A stretch of DNA of 52,791 nt. Origin: a virus. Its lineage: Duplodnaviria; Caudoviricetes. The notes under the pieces were generated by a model. It saw only the letters and a program-made list of their open reading frames with translations. It made no database searches and had not been told where the DNA came from. Of this stretch, positions 1,810 through 24,589 are shown one piece after another (positions within the stretch are counted from its first letter, which is position 1; each line of letters opens with the position of its first letter). The translations under genes were made by a program, and so were the position numbers. The stretch is taken from the IMG/VR virus record IMGVR_UViG_3300035150_000010, positions 1 through 52,791 of that record; one strand, written 5' to 3'.

Positions 1810-3446
1810 TCGCCAGCCTCATTAACAGCCTTGGCGGCCTTGCCGCCTTGTTCAATGACCTGACCGGCCTGACCTGCGGTTTGCATCAATTCAGCCATTT
1901 GTGCTTGCTGCTGAAGCTGTTCACGGCGTTGTGTAACCGCCTCAATTGGATTGAACCAATCCGCCTTCCAGCCAATGGCGCGAAGAGCAGACCGCGTGCT
2001 TTCCGTAATGTTGACGTTTTCGACCTGCGCCTCATCGATCTTTGCAGCTGGCAGAAGGATACGGGACAGACCATCAACAAAGGTTGCCGCGTCTGCTTGC
2101 TCTGCCATTTCCGCAAGGGGAGATCTGAACGAGAATTTGGCATCGGCTCCAATCAACGTCTCCGGCATTTGATCGACCGGGAACGCGCCATGCGCCATCA
2201 GGATATTAAATGTCACTTCACACAGCGGCGAATTGTAATCCTTCTCAACAGGCTCAAAAAGTGGAGACGCAGACCGAATATGCTCCTCAATCCGCCTGCG
2301 GACTTCAAATGCCGTCATGTCCGTGCCAGCATCCGGCAGCTGGATTTTGTCAAGGAAGAACGCATGCCGGATATCTTCCCGGAGCGCCTGTGCGATTTCA
2401 AAGCCAATTGGGATAGTTCCAGAATTCTGGCTGATCGGCCGCAGGACTTCGCCAAGCCTTTCGTCGTATTCCATATCGGCAATCGTAATGCCACCAGCGT
2501 AGAGCGGAATATCACCACGGATTGCATCAGCAATCGCGATCATGGGCGGATCGACATACTTTTCGCCAGCCTCACGCAGCGTTCGGGTGACTACCTGCGT
2601 CGTCCTGCCATCCGGCAAGGAAATGTTGGTCGCCATCGAGCGTCCGTAGACCGAACCGGATACCGTCATCCAGCGCGGAATGACATAAGGAAAATACTGA
2701 AGCGGGACTTCTTCAAGAATGTTTTCAGATTCACACTCTACGTAAATAGACGTAAATGGATAATCCTTGTTTTCCTTCTTGTCGTACTTATAAACGCTGC
2801 TTGGAACGAGAATATGCCTGCAATCGAACTTCTTTTCCGGTTCTTTCTCGCAAGCTTTCTTAACTTCCTTTGATACCTCATTACCGAAAAGATGCTTTAA
2901 TTGCCTTGCGGTTGGCTTCCAATTGCGATGAAGGCAATCAATGACGCCATCAGCGTTTTCACTCCACACACAATCACGCAAATGATAGTTCCTGTAGAGC
3001 AGCCCATTCAGATTTGAGTTTGGCGTGACCAGAATAACCGCATTGCCGAACGTAGCGTAATCATGATCTGCCTGCTTGGTTGCGCGGACAAAGCCTGTTG
3101 AGGCCTCATACATCGCCATCCATTGGATATCTCTCAGATATTCGAGGTACTTCCGTTCAATGCTGTTCTCGTCAAGAACCTTTTCGCCAACGTGGAGAGA
3201 AAACCACTTCTGGCTTTGCGGTCGAAGATTAGCAGATAGCAGGTTGCCGAGTTCGCGACGCGCCAGGACCGGATAAGATGCGTAGAGGTGATCTGAGTAC
3301 TCTTCACCCTCGTTTCTTATATCCGTGAAATCTGCGCGTTCAGGATAGAAGTTAAGCGCAATCTCCTGCCACAAACTATCAACAGTTCTCCGCCTGCTGA
3401 ACATGGAATCGCCAATGCTGAGCAGGTCACGAATGCGCGATTTCAC
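1806..3446 (-). CDS. Portal (head-to-tail connector) protein, T7/BPP-1 type
   Basis: 546 aa; PYVIPRW...YGRS and MTAFEV motifs; downstream of TerL. Confidence 0.92.
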   Translation of the reverse strand: MKSRIRDLLSIGDSMFSRRRTVDSLWQEIALNFYPERADFTDIRNEGEEYSDHLYASYPVLARRELGNLLSANLRPQSQKWFSLHVGEKVLDENSIERKYLEYLRDIQWMAMYEASTGFVRATKQADHDYATFGNAVILVTPNSNLNGLLYRNYHLRDCVWSENADGVIDCLHRNWKPTARQLKHLFGNEVSKEVKKACEKEPEKKFDCRHILVPSSVYKYDKKENKDYPFTSIYVECESENILEEVPLQYFPYVIPRWMTVSGSVYGRSMATNISLPDGRTTQVVTRTLREAGEKYVDPPMIAIADAIRGDIPLYAGGITIADMEYDERLGEVLRPISQNSGTIPIGFEIAQALREDIRHAFFLDKIQLPDAGTDMTAFEVRRRIEEHIRSASPLFEPVEKDYNSPLCEVTFNILMAHGAFPVDQMPETLIGADAKFSFRSPLAEMAEQADAATFVDGLSRILLPAAKIDEAQVENVNITESTRSALRAIGWKADWFNPIEAVTQRREQLQQQAQMAELMQTAGQAGQVIEQGGKAAKAVNEAGE

Positions 3447-20279: not shown

Positions 20280-21248
20280 CTAATGACAGGCCGCTATCGA
20301 TTTTGCTTCCCGCACGATCTCATCAGGATAAACGGTCTCACGATGATCCGGCGGGTACTCGTCGCCAATCGGTCCTAGCCTCTCCCATAGCCGGCCGTTC
20401 ATCTCGCCACCTGCCTTGCGCTCGAAATACGCTGTGCATCGTCGCACTGCCAGGAGCCGAGACATCTGCTTGCCGTTCTTGAGCGTGATCTGTTCTTCTG
20501 GTGGATTATCTTGCTTGGACTGGAATTGCTCCCATCCAGCCTGGTTGAGCCATGTGACCGCCTGCTGAGTGTATTGCGCGTCCTGACCGTTGCGAGCCGC
20601 GGCATATGCCTTTGCGCCTTGAATGATCGTATCGACAGGCACACCGCCTCTTGTGAGGCCCTTCCATTTTTTGAAAGCCGGCAGCTTCGGATTGTTGCCT
20701 GTTCGCTTTGGATAGGCTTTCCAGAATGCTTCGAAATCAGGTGTGTATTTCGTTCCGGTTTGTTTATTTGGCTTTGGAGAATCATCGAGCGGAAGCTCGC
20801 CACTTTCGGGCGGCGCTTTTGCGTCGTCCAATATATATTCTTCTCTTATTCCCTTCTTATATTCTTTAGATGTTGTTGGAAGCCTGTTGGAAGCCTGTTG
20901 GAAGCCTGTTGAATGGCTGTTATCTTGCCTGTTATCTTCCTGAAATTCATCCCACTTAGCTATTGATACTATTGAGAATTTTGAGTGTGTCGTGACTGTT
21001 ATCTCGCCTGTTGATTTTAGCTTTGAAAAGACTGTGCGCACCTGTTGCACTGACAAACCGCATTCTTTTGCGAGCGCAGGATAGCCGGTGACGCGCGATC
21101 CAGGCATAACCTCGCGCCCTTCAAATCTGCTTTTTTCGTAGTTGACGGTCAGCAGTAGATGGAGCCACACGCGAACGCAATTTGCGTCGTGATACCATTC
21201 CCAATTTCTCATCTTTCGATGAATCTTAAGCCAGCCTACTGGATGCAT
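20280..21248 (-). CDS. Phage replication initiator protein
   Basis: GWLKIHRKM..WEW wHTH N-terminus, FEAFWKAYPKR...TWLNQ..W C-terminal domain; likely start at MHPVG. Confidence 0.85.
   Translation of the reverse strand: MHPVGWLKIHRKMRNWEWYHDANCVRVWLHLLLTVNYEKSRFEGREVMPGSRVTGYPALAKECGLSVQQVRTVFSKLKSTGEITVTTHSKFSIVSIAKWDEFQEDNRQDNSHSTGFQQASNRLPTTSKEYKKGIREEYILDDAKAPPESGELPLDDSPKPNKQTGTKYTPDFEAFWKAYPKRTGNNPKLPAFKKWKGLTRGGVPVDTIIQGAKAYAAARNGQDAQYTQQAVTWLNQAGWEQFQSKQDNPPEEQITLKNGKQMSRLLAVRRCTAYFERKAGGEMNGRLWERLGPIGDEYPPDHRETVYPDEIVREAKSIAACH
20830..20940. promoter_or_regulatory. Probable replication origin (iterons plus AT-rich tract inside the initiator gene)
   Basis: TGTTGGAAGCC x3 followed by three degenerate copies (20874-20940), next to a pyrimidine/AT-rich run; lambdoid ori layout. 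Confidence 0.7.
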
Positions 21249-21484
21249 TTCGGGCGTGCCTTTGCATTGGCGCAACCCATAGCGGACTCTTATTAGGGGA
21301 GCGCAGGTTTGAAGCAGGTTGAGTTGGCGGTGCCTCAATGGCTAACCTGCAATGCCTAACCCGATTGAGATAGCTAGTCTCCGGGCGGCACCGCCAATTG
21401 CAATGTCACAAAAGCAGATGCGAACGTCAACAATTTATTTCAAAAAACATGTTGCAATGCTCAACAAGACGTGCAACAAAGGTT

Positions 21485-21565
21485 TTGCCAATCGTGGTGA
21501 ATGAAACGGTTACTTCATTGGGAATGAAACCACACCGTTTCAGCTTGTTCCCGAATGGTTGACAA
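21485..21565 (+). ncRNA. Short Y-like RNA (Ro60-associated)
   Basis: Terminal stem, UGAAACGG/CCGUUUCA helix, CGGUUACUUC and (U/C)UGUUCCC motifs shared with the next RNA; upstream of the TROVE gene. Confidence 0.75.
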
Positions 21566-21706
21566 CAGCAGAGGTGGCGTAGAAGTCGGTTACTTCTCCT
21601 GCTAAGAGTGAGGTCACGGGTTCGAGTCCCGTCATCAGCGCAAGCTGATGTAGCTCAGCTGGTTAGAGCGCATACGTTATCCGGTTTCGCCTGTTCCCCT
21701 CTGCTG
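21566..21706 (+). ncRNA. yrlA: YrlA-like Y RNA with a circularly permuted tRNA domain
   Basis: CAGCAGAGG/CCUCUGCUG closing stem; T arm ACGGG-UUCGAGU-CCCGU, acceptor stem closed by GCAA, D arm GCUC-AGCUGGUUA-GAGC; adjacent to Ro60. Confidence 0.88.
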
Positions 21707-21737: not shown

Positions 21738-23042
21738 ATGCGCCTAAATGTTACTTCCAACTATGACCTCCAATATACCCATGAAGGGGCAAAGGCAAAG
21801 CGCGTGACGCCGGAACAGGCTTTGCGCCGTTCTGTGCTGTCCTGCCTGCTGTGGGAAAAGACCTTTTACGAGGACGGCAAGGACATCGCAGACCGCATCC
21901 TTGAGAACGCTGCAAAGGTCGATAAAGAAACCGTTTCAGCTCTTGCAATCGAGGCCCGCAACGTTCACGGACTGCGACACGCCCCGTTGATGCTGCTTCT
22001 CGACCTGATCCGACGTGGTGGCCCTGGCACTGCTGAAACGATCAAAAATACCCTACGGCGCGCTGATGAAATGGCAGAGCTTGTCGCGCTTTATTGGAAG
22101 GACGGAAAGAAACCGCTTTCCAAGCAGATGAAACTTGGCCTTGCCTGCGCCTTCGGCAAGTTCTCTGAATACCAGCTTGCCAAGTACGACCGCGACGGTC
22201 CGGTGAAACTCCGTGATGTTCTGTTCATGACGCATCCGAAGCCAAAGGATGCAGAGCAGGAAGCACTCTTCAAGCGTGTTGCCGATCGCGAGCTTGCTAC
22301 ACCGGACACATGGGAAACTTCTCTGTCTGCCGGATGCGACAAGCGCGAGACATTCGAGCGCATGATCCGAGAAGGCAAGCTTGGCTATCTGGCATTGCTT
22401 CGCAATTTGCGTAACATGATGGATGCCGGTTGTGACCGTGGCCTTGTTTCTGACGCCATCATTGCGCGGAAAGGAGCTGAACTGGTGTTCCCGTTCCGCT
22501 ATGTTGCCGCCGCCCGCGCGTGTCCGCAGCTTGAACCGGTGATTGATCAGGCGCTATGCGAGGCTATCGCGTCCGCGCCGCGTCTATCCGGAACAACTGC
22601 CGTTCTTGTCGATGTGTCTGGGTCCATGTTCTACGATAAGGTTTCGGCCAAGTCGGACATGACCCGTGCAGATGCAGCCGCTGCGCTTGCCTCAGTGATC
22701 AATGGCGACTTGCGTGTGTTCACGTTCTCTAATCAGATCGTCGAAGTTCCGGCACGCCGTGGAATGGCGGGTGTTGATGCTGTAATCAATTCTCAGCCGC
22801 ATGGCAGAACCTATCTAGGAGCTGCAGTGACTGCGATCAACAATGAAATCCCTTGCGACCGGCTTATCGTCATCACTGACGAACAGTCGCATGATCGTGT
22901 ACCTGACCCGGTTTCTAAGAAGGCGTACATGATCAATGTTGCTGGCTACAAGAACGGCGTAGGATATGGTCGTTGGACGCACATCGATGGCTTCAGCGAG
23001 TCGGTTATCCGGTTTATTGCAGAGGTTGAGAATGACCGGTGA
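21738..23042 (+). CDS. rsr: Ro60/Rsr TROVE-domain RNA-binding protein with vWA domain
   Basis: THEG, FYEDG, YQLAKY, TWET.LS, ALLRNLRN, PFRY, DVSGSM MIDAS, ITDEQ; AGGAG RBS. Confidence 0.95.
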   Translation: MRLNVTSNYDLQYTHEGAKAKRVTPEQALRRSVLSCLLWEKTFYEDGKDIADRILENAAKVDKETVSALAIEARNVHGLRHAPLMLLLDLIRRGGPGTAETIKNTLRRADEMAELVALYWKDGKKPLSKQMKLGLACAFGKFSEYQLAKYDRDGPVKLRDVLFMTHPKPKDAEQEALFKRVADRELATPDTWETSLSAGCDKRETFERMIREGKLGYLALLRNLRNMMDAGCDRGLVSDAIIARKGAELVFPFRYVAAARACPQLEPVIDQALCEAIASAPRLSGTTAVLVDVSGSMFYDKVSAKSDMTRADAAAALASVINGDLRVFTFSNQIVEVPARRGMAGVDAVINSQPHGRTYLGAAVTAINNEIPCDRLIVITDEQSHDRVPDPVSKKAYMINVAGYKNGVGYGRWTHIDGFSESVIRFIAEVENDR

Positions 23043-23211
23043 AGAGCTAAAAGAAGCCGGCATCAAACTTTTTGGTAGGCGCGGGTGGCAATCTGCGCTT
23101 GCCGAAAGGCTGGGCATAGACCGCACACAAGTCTGGCGATACATGCAGAACGACCGGGTTCCTGGCCCGGTCGCCGCTGCTGTTGAGTGTTGGCTCAAAA
23201 ACTCGTCTTAG
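23032..23211 (+). CDS. Small XRE-type HTH regulator co-transcribed with Ro60
   Basis: MTGEELK...WQSALAERLGIDRTQVWRY...VPGPV. Confidence 0.8.
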   Translation: MTGEELKEAGIKLFGRRGWQSALAERLGIDRTQVWRYMQNDRVPGPVAAAVECWLKNSS

Positions 23212-24589
23212 CCGCAATATGCGCCTTGCCGATCTCGCAATATGTCTTGTGCGTATTGATTGGCCCGGTGCGGTTTTTGGCGATGATCCATTCAAGATCC
23301 TTGGCGCGACTGTCGGCCTTTTCCGTGAACTCAATGTCCGTTCCGAATTTCGGATCGCGCTCGTCGTAGTAGGCAGGCCGGTATAGGAACACGACCTGGT
23401 CGGCATCTTGTTCGAGCGACCCTGAATCGCGCAGATCGGACAGCACGGGTCGCTTGTTATCCCTGCTTTCTACGGCTCTGGAAAGCTGCGACAGGGCGAC
23501 CATGCAGACGTTGAGCTTTTTTGCCAGCCCCTTGAGCCCGGCCGATATCTCACCGATCTCGTTGACCTTGCTGCCCTTGTAACGGTCTCCGGCAGACATG
23601 AGGCCAAGATAGTCAACCACGATGGCGCCCAGCTGTATGCCACGGCGCTCAAAGCTCTGCTGCATCACCCTGGCGCGCGCCTCGATCTGGCCTATGGTTA
23701 AGCCGCTGGTGTCGTCTATCTCAATCGGCAGCTGCCGCGCGGTGTCGGCATATCGCTTGTAAGCCTCGAACTGTTCCCGGGTAAGCCTACCGTTGTTGAT
23801 GTCGCCGTAATAAAGCTCCTCATGGCCCATTGCGGCCTCTGCGGCAACGAGACGGGAGAACCATTGTTCGCGGCTGATTTCGAGCGTGAAGACAGCAACG
23901 CCGAATTTCTGACGGGCGGCACGGCGGGCAATATGAACGCCGGCCACTGTCTTGCCCATGCCTGGCCTCGCGGCGATCAATAGGAGATTTGTCGGAAGCA
24001 GGCCGCCAAGGTCCCGGTCAAGCTCGCTAATGCCAATCTTCGGAACAGGCGGCGCCTTGCCTTCCATGATCATCTGAATTTTTTCGGTCAAACCCGCCTC
24101 GATGCCGTCCAGGCTGTCGTCCTTTCCGGTTTCTTCCGGTCGAAGCTGGAAAAGCCGGGCACCCAAATCGTCGATCATGGCGTTCGAGCTCGTGCCTATC
24201 GGCGCGTCATAGGCCAGCTCTGTGACAGACTGAGCCAGCGCTATCATGTTCCGGCGCGTGGCAAGGTCAACAATCTGCTGAGCATAATCTGTGGCATTGA
24301 TGCGGTTTATGCTGTCCTTGACGAGACTGAGCAGGAATTTGACTACCGACATGCCGCCCCACTGCTCGCCGTCGCTCAGATAGGTCTTGAGCGTGACTGG
24401 AGAAGCGTCCTTGCCATCATTGATCAGGGTCGCCGCCTTCTCGTAAATGGTCCTGTGTTCTTTGATGAAAAAATGCTCTGGCTTCAGGATGTCAGCGACG
24501 AGATAGAACACATCATTGCTCATCAGAATTGCGCCCAGCAACTGCCTTTCCGCCTCCGCGTTGTGCGGCGGCGTGCGTCCCTCGGTCAT
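23195..24589 (-). CDS. dnaB: Replicative DNA helicase DnaB
   Basis: PPHN.EAE..LLGAIL, AARPGMGKT, VDYLGLM, LSQLSR, LSDLRDSGSLEQDAD, KNRTGP. Confidence 0.96.
   Translation of the reverse strand: MTEGRTPPHNAEAERQLLGAILMSNDVFYLVADILKPEHFFIKEHRTIYEKAATLINDGKDASPVTLKTYLSDGEQWGGMSVVKFLLSLVKDSINRINATDYAQQIVDLATRRNMIALAQSVTELAYDAPIGTSSNAMIDDLGARLFQLRPEETGKDDSLDGIEAGLTEKIQMIMEGKAPPVPKIGISELDRDLGGLLPTNLLLIAARPGMGKTVAGVHIARRAARQKFGVAVFTLEISREQWFSRLVAAEAAMGHEELYYGDINNGRLTREQFEAYKRYADTARQLPIEIDDTSGLTIGQIEARARVMQQSFERRGIQLGAIVVDYLGLMSAGDRYKGSKVNEIGEISAGLKGLAKKLNVCMVALSQLSRAVESRDNKRPVLSDLRDSGSLEQDADQVVFLYRPAYYDERDPKFGTDIEFTEKADSRAKDLEWIIAKNRTGPINTHKTYCEIGKAHIAAKTSF

Follow-up and report, generated by a model that had tools for sequence, protein, structure and literature searches.

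A probable YrlA-type Y RNA with a split anticodon arm beside a phage Ro60/Rsr gene

Y RNAs bind Ro60/Rsr through a motif close to their ends and tether or gate the protein (PMC4201824). In the YrlA class the 5' motif is given as GNCGAAN0-1G, and the text of Chen et al. (2014) describes YrlA as a mimic of the D, T and acceptor arms of tRNA, a further hairpin being drawn as a variable-arm stem-loop, 'V' (PMC4201824). Salmonella YrlA (PDB 6CU1) was described by Wang et al. (2018) as an RNA that 'lacks the anticodon loop', with a kinked stem leading to the Ro60 module (10.1101/312249). YrlA, which carries the tRNA modifications psi55 and D, is modified by TruB and DusA (PMC4201824), and Hughes et al. 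(2020) suggested that it may inhibit an anticodon nuclease by competition (PMC7790460). The Salmonella RNA is the reference structure, and the field pictures the tRNA-like domain of bacterial and phage Y RNAs as D, T and acceptor arms. The present analysis concerns the virus record IMGVR_UViG_3300035150_000010 of IMG/VR (Caudoviricetes), whose 52,791 bases (estimated completeness 93%) are referred to below as the window, and two predicted RNAs in it, RNA1 and RNA2, located within 250 bases upstream of a gene for a Ro60/Rsr protein (rsr). An earlier note on the same DNA had described both as Y-like RNAs with canonical anticodon stem-loops, and RNA2 as an unchargeable full tRNA mimic opened at the anticodon stem, and had tentatively seen in them decoys presented by Ro60 to anticodon nucleases or toxins, or ligands of ribosomes or T-boxes; its remark that the YrlA model stresses the D, T and acceptor arms agrees with the text of PMC4201824. 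On comparative grounds the two are probably Y RNAs of the phage Ro60/Rsr, RNA2 being of the YrlA class and composed of a handle and a complete rotated tRNA with a split anticodon arm. Comparison of the relatives of RNA2 showed the arm and its U-turn-type loop to be maintained by selection, with the anticodon triplet free to change.

RNA2 and its composite anticodon arm

RNA2 resembles YrlA (RF02553) in adjoining rsr (32 nt separate its end from the TROVE/Ro60 gene), in ends predicted to form a handle, in a YUAY motif upstream, and in the rotated order of T arm, sealed acceptor stem and D arm. At a relaxed threshold the best Rfam match for 21586-21696 was YrlA RF02553 (37.8 bits, E 8.5e-7); the outer stems of the Rfam model fit RNA2 poorly. 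With a covariance model of our own, R1, RNA2 scored 132 bits. Compared with GNCGAAN0-1G, the motifs of RNA2 (GGCGUAG) and RNA1 (GGUGAAUG) are each one base off; relatives keep GUGGYG..UAG, and bacterial relatives GGCGAAUG. The elements of RNA2 are as follows, in tRNA numbering where applicable.

21566-21706, + strand: RNA2, YrlA-type Y RNA; terminal helix 21566-21574 / 21698-21706; every pair of the full model was checked.
21576-21582, + strand: GGCGUAG, by analogy the likely Ro60/Rsr-binding 5' motif; GGCG (21576-21579) pairs with CGCC (21688-21691); GUGGYG..UAG is conserved in alignments A1 and A2.
21584-21589 / 21681-21686, + strand: handle helix AGUCGG / CCGGUU, covarying in RNAalifold on A2 (columns 18-25 with 124-131).
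21590-21596, + strand: UUACUUC (YUAY motif plus UUC), invariant in A1 and A2; UUAC is 21590-21593, and the final C is position 29 of the anticodon stem.
21596-21610, + strand: anticodon arm; C29 U30 C31, loop C32 U33 G34 C35 U36 A37 A38 (21599-21605), 3' strand G39 A40 G41 U42 G43.
21611-21615, + strand: variable loop AGGUC, five bases, positions 44-48.
21616-21632, + strand: T arm ACGGG-UUCGAGU-CCCGU.
21633-21650, + strand: acceptor stem of 7 bp, 3' strand first, with GCAA tetraloop (21640-21643); covariation in 7/7 pairs.
21651-21669, + strand: U8 A9 and D arm GCUC-AGCUGGUUA-GAGC (D arm 21653-21669).
21670-21672, + strand: G26, C27 and A28; C27 (21671) pairs in trans with G43 (21610), and A28 (21672) in trans with U42 (21609).
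21673-21680, + strand: A/U-rich single-stranded linker of 8 nt leading to the handle helix; 5-8 nt long in 84/102 relatives.
21687-21699, + strand: conserved 3' motif UCGCCUGUUCCCC, from alignment and motif counts.

In the proposed fold the ends of RNA2 would form the handle (terminal helix, GGCG/CGCC, AGUCGG/CCGGUU and the conserved UUACUUC and UGUUCCC strands), which by homology would hold Ro60. The middle would fold as a complete L-shaped tRNA with its gene order rotated and its acceptor end sealed by the tetraloop. The 5' strand of the anticodon stem would be nicked at 28|29, and there the chain would enter and leave. Three cis pairs, within the hairpin, would close a canonical U33...R37-A38 loop, and two trans pairs, with the bases after G26, would stack the arm under G26 and the D stem. 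After rotation RNA2 has four arms, a 7-nt anticodon loop, U33, a purine at 37, a short variable loop and T and D loops that agree with the tRNA consensus; it departs from a tRNA in having no free 5' end, 3' CCA or continuous anticodon stem, the acceptor being closed by GCAA and the handle inserted at 28|29. ARAGORN run on the window itself called 21568-21641 as 'tRNA-Ser (gct)'.

Relatives were collected with a search for Rsr proteins (59 IMG/VR loci and four genome-contig loci), from named phages of Xanthomonas/Xylella, Brevundimonas, Caulobacter, Gordonia, Microbacterium and Mycobacterium, and with a DNA pattern in IMG/VR (motif, 11-16 free bases, GTC, T arm) that found at least 119 stretches. 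A script parsed 228 motif-plus-T-arm matches to 154 with a sealed acceptor stem and a D arm, 145 of them unique. The arm was scored with the T stem as anchor, a variable loop of 4 or 5 nt, a 7-nt loop with at least two cis pairs, and five stem pairs in total. The alignments came from a covariance model whose pairs were confined to the helices of the handle and to the stems of the T, acceptor and D arms, with no anticodon-stem pairs, so that they were not fitted to the hypothesis; the model-aligned sets were A3 (Rsr-anchored, 67 distinct rows) and A4 (motif-anchored, 124 distinct rows).

A 7-nt loop on a 5-bp composite stem was present in 105 of the 145 unique relatives, as compared with 4-26 of 145 for each loop length of 3-6 and 8-11. 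Among these 105, U33 is found in 100, a purine at 37 in 102 (A 75, G 27) and A38 in 96; position 32 is C in 57, A in 26 and U in 21. Positions 33 and 38 have entropies of 0.32 and 0.51 bits, against 1.5-1.9 at 34-36, where 30 different triplets occur (GUU 16, GCU 12, UGU 12, UGG 10 and UUU 5 being the commonest). The variable loop is 5 nt in 88 and 4 nt in 17, mostly RGGUC (AGGUC in 53). More than one triplet was found in 15 of 21 identical arm frames (same stem and loop flanks, each in at least two RNAs), one frame carrying five triplets in ten RNAs, and all 17 loci with two or more arm-bearing RNAs hold different anticodons (17/17). The alignment check proposed in the earlier note thus came out in its favour, U33 and R37 being conserved as the anticodon varies. 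In the alignments built without anticodon-stem pairs, a 7-nt loop with two cis pairs was recovered in 39/58 T-arm-bearing Rsr-anchored matches (37 with U33 and R37) and in 93/124 motif-anchored ones (86 with U33 and R37). When the relatives were rotated in silico to tRNA order, the 5' strand of the stem being assembled from the two trans and the three cis bases, ARAGORN called a tRNA in 105/105, the window included, and placed the anticodon at the predicted positions 34-36 in 104/105; with all four arms present, the description of RNA2 as a full mimic of tRNA, with its opening in the anticodon stem, held. Serine or leucine anticodons are carried by 23 of the 105 on bodies with a short variable loop. 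Bacterial tRNA-Ser and tRNA-Leu have long variable arms; these RNAs are therefore no recent copies of genuine tRNAs, and the architecture of the loop has persisted.

The stem of the arm is composite. The trans pairs 27-43 and 28-42, which use the two bases after N26, are each formed in 96% of the 105, and 28-42 occurs as all four Watson-Crick types (U-A 42, C-G 33, G-C 18, A-U 8). At least two contiguous trans pairs were found in 131/145 relatives, compared with about 48 when partners are permuted. The cis pair 29-41, which uses the last C of UUACUUC, is formed in 90% of the 105, and the cis pairs 30-40 and 31-39 covary. The covariation score of the composite stem was 0.347 in A3 (all-cis 0.247, all-trans 0.199) and 0.509 in A4 (all-cis 0.307, all-trans 0.387); none of 500 shuffles scored as high as the observed composite, and stems displaced by 1-3 columns gave at most 0.104. 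The hairpin of RNA2 lies where the earlier note placed it, with CUC at 21596-21598, CUGCUAA at 21599-21605 and GAG at 21606-21608, and so does that of RNA1 (UUCA-UUGGGAA-UGAA). As a plain cis hairpin, however, the RNA2 stem was upheld only for 29-41, 30-40 and 31-39; the outer pairs 27-43 and 28-42 are made in trans with C21671 and A21672. Two uniform stems were rejected as the general structure, since both scored below the composite in covariation: the 5-bp all-cis hairpin, which is the layout of the earlier note and of ARAGORN, and the 5-bp all-trans stem of classic YrlA, with which ARAGORN accepted 90/105 rotated relatives and found the expected anticodon in 80. With three pairs in cis and two in trans, the 5' strand falls into two pieces, divided at 28|29 where the Ro60-binding handle exits, and the topology of RNA2 is a three-way junction. 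No base lies between positions 41 and 42, and the cis hairpin and trans stem can therefore stack as one anticodon arm under the D stem; such coaxial stacking would be expected from the layout.

Several observations weigh against this reading. Most of the 145 relatives come from the scan that required GTTACTTC, 11-16 spacer bases and a GTC ahead of the T arm, and the sample therefore favours the anticodon-arm architecture; the set anchored by Rsr only is smaller, with the arm in 17 of 24 parsed members and in the 39 of 58 found by the model. The sequences are related by descent, and the counts are not independent events. The arm is absent in 40 of the 145, at least ten of which have the classic all-trans form (four or more trans pairs, no hairpin) and seven a segment that is too short; it is therefore not needed for a Y RNA as such, and Xanthomonas phages have arm-bearing and arm-less kinds side by side. 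Positions 42 and 43 can also pair in cis with the invariant UU (73% and 84%), a pairing that is lost whenever position 42 holds a pyrimidine (U-U in the window), and RNAalifold on a 17-sequence seed picked the all-cis hairpin. The single-sequence minimum free energy (MFE) of RNA2, -56.2 kcal/mol, belongs to a non-tRNA fold, as compared with -40.7 for the proposed fold; the three layouts of the anticodon stem (-40.7, -43.8 and -41.4 kcal/mol) are not separated by the nearest-neighbour model, and all are worse than the MFE. The folding z-score of the whole of RNA2 is only -3.0. The single-sequence fold was set aside, and not counted as support, because the comparative data are stronger. At gathering scores Rfam gave no match in the window, the 37.8 bits of RNA2 standing against a cut-off of 69 for RF02553, and binding of RNA2 by Ro60 is suggested by analogy only.

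Competing readings and possible function

In class II tRNAs the variable arm is a hairpin between the anticodon stem and the T stem, ending one or two bases before the latter. Were the hairpin of RNA2 a mimic of this arm ('V'), the handle helix AGUCGG/CCGGUU would be the equivalent of the anticodon stem and no anticodon arm would exist. This is the model of Chen et al. (PMC4201824) and the layout of the Rfam consensus, and in the Salmonella crystal structure, as described, the stem leading to the handle occupies the anticodon-stem position and has no loop (10.1101/312249). In the present relatives, however, the hairpin is followed by five (88/105) or four (17/105) bases, mostly RGGUC, as positions 44-48 would be. 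It has a 7-nt loop in which U33, R37 and A38 are kept, and its 3' strand forms covarying pairs with the bases that directly follow N26. The published layout would also leave 7-11 unpaired bases between the D arm and the 'anticodon stem', and the rotated form was accepted by ARAGORN as a class I tRNA in 105/105, so that a variable-arm mimic is considered quite improbable. Only slightly better placed, and still unlikely, is an arm without a role of its own, left over from an ancestral tRNA or from repeated recombination with tRNA genes. The tRNA origin of the whole domain is plain, the 40 arm-less relatives do without the arm, and the anticodons are diverse and unlinked to body type, GUCU-type D arms, for example, being found with Glu, Gly, Pro and Arg triplets. 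Against such a relic, loop length, U33, R37, A38 and stem pairing are kept across proteobacterial and actinobacterial phages and at bacterial loci with Rsr proteins 23-26% identical, when triplet, stem sequence and acceptor cap change freely, and the Ser/Leu triplets on class I bodies speak against recent capture. A match of body type to anticodon, as in captured real tRNAs, was considered and rejected: one Xanthomonas-phage RNA is Glu-like throughout, yet GUCU-type D arms occur with several other triplets.

The term 'unchargeable' used in the earlier note is not secure, because the acceptor stem has 7 bp, as in M. smegmatis YrlA, which is cut by RNase P and carries CCA in vivo (PMC4201824). 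RNA2 might on this precedent be a usable split tRNA held on Ro60, its sealed acceptor opened by RNase P and given CCA, so that two paired pieces could be charged. M. smegmatis YrlA was cut by RNase P in vitro, Rsr-bound halves of 82 and 65 nt were found in vivo, and CA was gained to complete a CCA tail; the authors credit the 7-bp acceptor stem and mention possible aminoacylation (PMC4201824). The acceptor stem in the window is likewise 7 bp, and the arm provides an anticodon. A usable tRNA is nevertheless very improbable here: the cap is a GNRA loop of 4 nt only, no encoded CCA is present in the caps (across the relatives no consistent C74 or CCA was found there), and the handle, leaving the anticodon stem at 28|29, would project at the place where a tRNA contacts the ribosome during decoding. 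The Ser/Leu triplets, moreover, sit on bodies without the long variable arm that those synthetases use.

If the composite arm is accepted, proteins that recognise the anticodon loop together with the tRNA body could mistake a Ro60-bound RNA for a full-length tRNA. The likeliest use, itself proposed tentatively, would be competition with, or capture of, host nucleases that target tRNA, and the next likeliest recognition by tRNA-handling enzymes and stabilisation. For tRNAs encoded by phages, a role against defences that cut tRNA has been proposed (PMC10264068). The PARIS nuclease AriB cuts Lys-UUU, Thr-UGU and Asn-GUU tRNAs and is reported to need U36-A-A-U near the cut and contacts with the D loop (PMC12409363). 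The triplets UUU, UGU and GUU together make up 33 of the 105 anticodons, and U36-A-A-U-C is present in 17 of the 105 arms, which is a lead only. The overlap is suggestive and no more because the sequences are related and the bias towards NNU-AA is perhaps inherited; it may thus reflect ancestry and not nuclease targets. Salmonella YrlA is not cut by a damage-induced anticodon nuclease, an observation that fits an inhibitor and proves nothing (PMC7790460). It is conceivable, though doubtful, that Ro60-bound Y RNAs of phages and of many bacteria display their anticodon arms as bait for defence nucleases directed at the anticodon loop, each member of an array mimicking a different tRNA. Candidate nucleases would then be PARIS AriB, PrrC, colicin-type enzymes and VapC-like toxins, the Y RNA being bound or cut in place of the tRNA; the rapid turnover of triplets, with the U33/R37 frame constant around them, would be the trace of an arms race with these nucleases, and the long-sought job of the YrlA tRNA-like domain would be found together with a new class of RNA anti-defence. 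Between roughly two thirds and three quarters of the phage relatives keep a complete anticodon arm, as do bacterial YrlAs next to distant rsr genes. The partners now worth seeking are readers of the anticodon loop (anticodon nucleases, loop-modifying enzymes, synthetases), and the published idea of an anticodon-nuclease inhibitor is directly testable through defined loop mutants.

RNA1, other loci and the surrounding cassette

RNA1 is the smaller RNA of the cassette, with the following elements.

21487-21559, + strand: RNA1, small Y RNA (YrlB-like); outer helix 21488-21494 / 21552-21558; assigned from the fold, conserved motifs in alignment A1 and motif counts.
21495-21503, + strand: segment UGGUGAAUG.
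21504-21509 / 21535-21540, + strand: helix AAACGG / CCGUUU.
21514-21528, + strand: hairpin UUCA[UUGGGAA]UGAA (UUCA 21514-21517, loop 21518-21524, UGAA 21525-21528); the rival fold is UUCAUU[GGG]AAUGAA.
21541-21552, + strand: 3' motif CAGCUUGUUCCC.

The sequence GGUUACUUC is common to RNA1 (21508-21516) and RNA2 (21588-21596), its only two matches in the window (0.19 expected), and YUGUUCCC stands at the 3' side of both RNAs (21545-21552 and 21691-21698). The claim of canonical anticodon stem-loops in both RNAs stood for RNA2, with the arm in 105 of 145 relatives, and was only partly sustained for RNA1. The anticodon-like stem of RNA1 has 4 bp where 5 are canonical, its best fold is a 6-bp stem with a GGG triloop, and the z-score of the whole RNA is -1.5. 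Among 71 unique small relatives, a motif-UUC hairpin with a 7-nt loop is possible in 35, and the best-stem loop after the motif ranges from 3 to 12 nt, with no hairpin in ten. This variability, and the preference of RNA1 for the triloop, would be expected if the hairpin were the plain UUC/GAA-closed stem-loop of small Y RNAs with an incidental likeness to an anticodon loop. Seven is, however, the commonest loop length (35 compared with 5-26 for the others), and U33 is present in 26 of the 35 loops, R37 in 27 and the two together in 21 (probability of 21 or more at local composition 2e-9); some, such as CUGCUAA, CUGUUAA and CUUUUAA, are perfect, textbook anticodon loops. For RNA1 alone, the plain stem-loop is accordingly held at even weight with its alternatives: the anticodon likeness is real in sequence, is weakly supported as a selected feature and is not constant among small Y RNAs. 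The GGGAA loop of RNA1 could pair with the conserved UUCCC 3' motif in the phage of the window, which is not general.

The composite arm was also found elsewhere and is not specific to phages. The Y RNAs that adjoin 'Ro-like' genes in Gordonia phage BearBQ and Microbacterium phage FuzzBuster, and one of Mycobacterium phage Phabba, have, as judged by eye, three cis and two trans pairs and the loops CUGCUAA, CUGUUAA and CUGUCAA. In Phabba (L190 1479-1613) the arm-bearing Y RNA (CUGUCAA) is unannotated and stands in a long tRNA array beside the tmRNA gene, and no Ro gene was found within 1.5 kb of it. Model R1 was run on 151 genomes of one bacterial order and gave matches at E <= 1e-6 in 34. Of 12 matches examined closely, all have the two trans pairs and eight have three cis pairs and a 7-nt loop, with U33 and R37 in seven of the eight. 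A relative of rsr lies within 1.5 kb at five of these loci, one encoding a protein 52% identical to that of the window and four 23-26%. Hyphomicrobiales matches with the GGCGAAUG motif have the same composite arm. Many of the partial bacterial matches, at model positions 32-115, seem to be junctions between adjacent ordinary tRNA genes, where the 3' portion of one gene precedes the 5' portion of its neighbour; a tandem of tRNA genes in this way resembles the rotated layout.

Further arrangements were seen at single loci. A metagenome-assembled contig (L062 1-1200) has eight motif-bearing Y RNAs in tandem in the 1.1 kb upstream of rsr, small forms being mixed with tRNA-like forms that bear anticodon arms (UGU, GCU). 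At L007 1406-1483 the position that the tRNA-like Y RNA has at other loci, immediately upstream of rsr and behind two small Y RNAs, is filled by a tRNA-Pro(UGG) of normal appearance with a CCA end. In a clade of phages of about 100 kb (L023-L059, Rsr about 35% identical) the Y RNAs are downstream of rsr, around 2900-3300, with loops such as CUUUUAA after GUUACUUCAAAAG and with tRNA-Arg genes and a tmRNA gene nearby. Two GenBank tRNA genes coincide with Y RNAs found by R1: 'tRNA-Thr' of Xanthomonas phage 10KY502B (L064 601-668, Y RNA 593-729) and 'tRNA-Gln' of Caulobacter phage CcrColossus (L068 565-632, Y RNA 557-726). Handle, anticodon arm and T arm are read by tRNA finders as a tRNA, and phage tRNA counts therefore include Y RNAs; labelled as tRNA genes by the finders and in GenBank, they inflate those counts.

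The genes around the two RNAs are as follows.

20280-21338, - strand: DnaD-like/replication-initiator gene, neighbour of the Y-RNA/rsr cassette.
21738-23042, + strand: Ro60/Rsr gene, 434 aa; Pfam TROVE E 2.1e-11, weak Ro60 vWA match, PHROG 850 'RNA-binding protein' E 1.6e-50.
23195-24589, - strand: DnaB, the other neighbour of the cassette.

The + strand cassette is thus set between minus-strand replication genes and resembles a separately transcribed accessory module; a sigma-70-like promoter was looked for upstream of the cassette and not found. Public sequencing records list no RNA run for the sequence and a single DNA run that may be its source. On the minus strand just upstream of RNA1, 21442-21501 holds a hairpin GUUGCA...UGCAAC followed by a U run, with a weak Rfam match to ES205 (21.5 bits, cut-off 86), which is possibly a terminator for the minus-strand genes.

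Comparison with known systems

In the red alga Cyanidioschyzon, circularly permuted tRNA genes encode the 3' half first, with the acceptor ends joined by a short linker, and the transcripts mature through a circular intermediate into ordinary tRNAs. Unlike these genes, RNA2 carries a conserved protein-binding handle at its break point. Within the YrlA class, the anticodon-like stem of Salmonella YrlA is described as all-trans with a kink and its acceptor stem as 6 bp, whereas in RNA2 three cis pairs close a 7-nt loop, two pairs are in trans, and the acceptor stem has 7 bp. An extra stem-loop, 'V', upstream of the T arm is present in the M. smegmatis, R. etli, P. fulva and mycobacteriophage YrlAs (PMC4201824), as in RNA2, and the primer reported for M. 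smegmatis YrlA reads as a CUUCUAA loop in the same frame with complementary flanks, followed by UGGUC (PMC4201824). Since this hairpin was drawn as 'V' by Chen et al., it was already known, but filed as a variable arm. What appears to be new is its reading as a conserved anticodon arm with a hypervariable triplet in most phage members and also in bacterial ones; the literature search, which covered the text of Chen et al. (2014) and could be wrong on this point, found no paper that names the 'V' hairpin an anticodon arm. D. radiodurans Yrn1 is likewise Ro60-bound and tRNA-like and is described with a potential 'anticodon arm' on a 5-bp stem, but has a 6-nt loop, arms oppositely oriented to the RNA ends and a doubtful D arm (PMC4201824). 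The phage tRNAs that resist nucleases (van den Berg 2023; the T5 tRNAs facing PARIS, Belukhina 2025) are, as reported, phage-borne tRNA bodies with anticodon loops, like RNA2. They decode, replacing the cleaved host tRNAs, whereas the Y RNAs, with a sealed acceptor and a Ro60 handle, would, if they act at all, do so by binding or competing.

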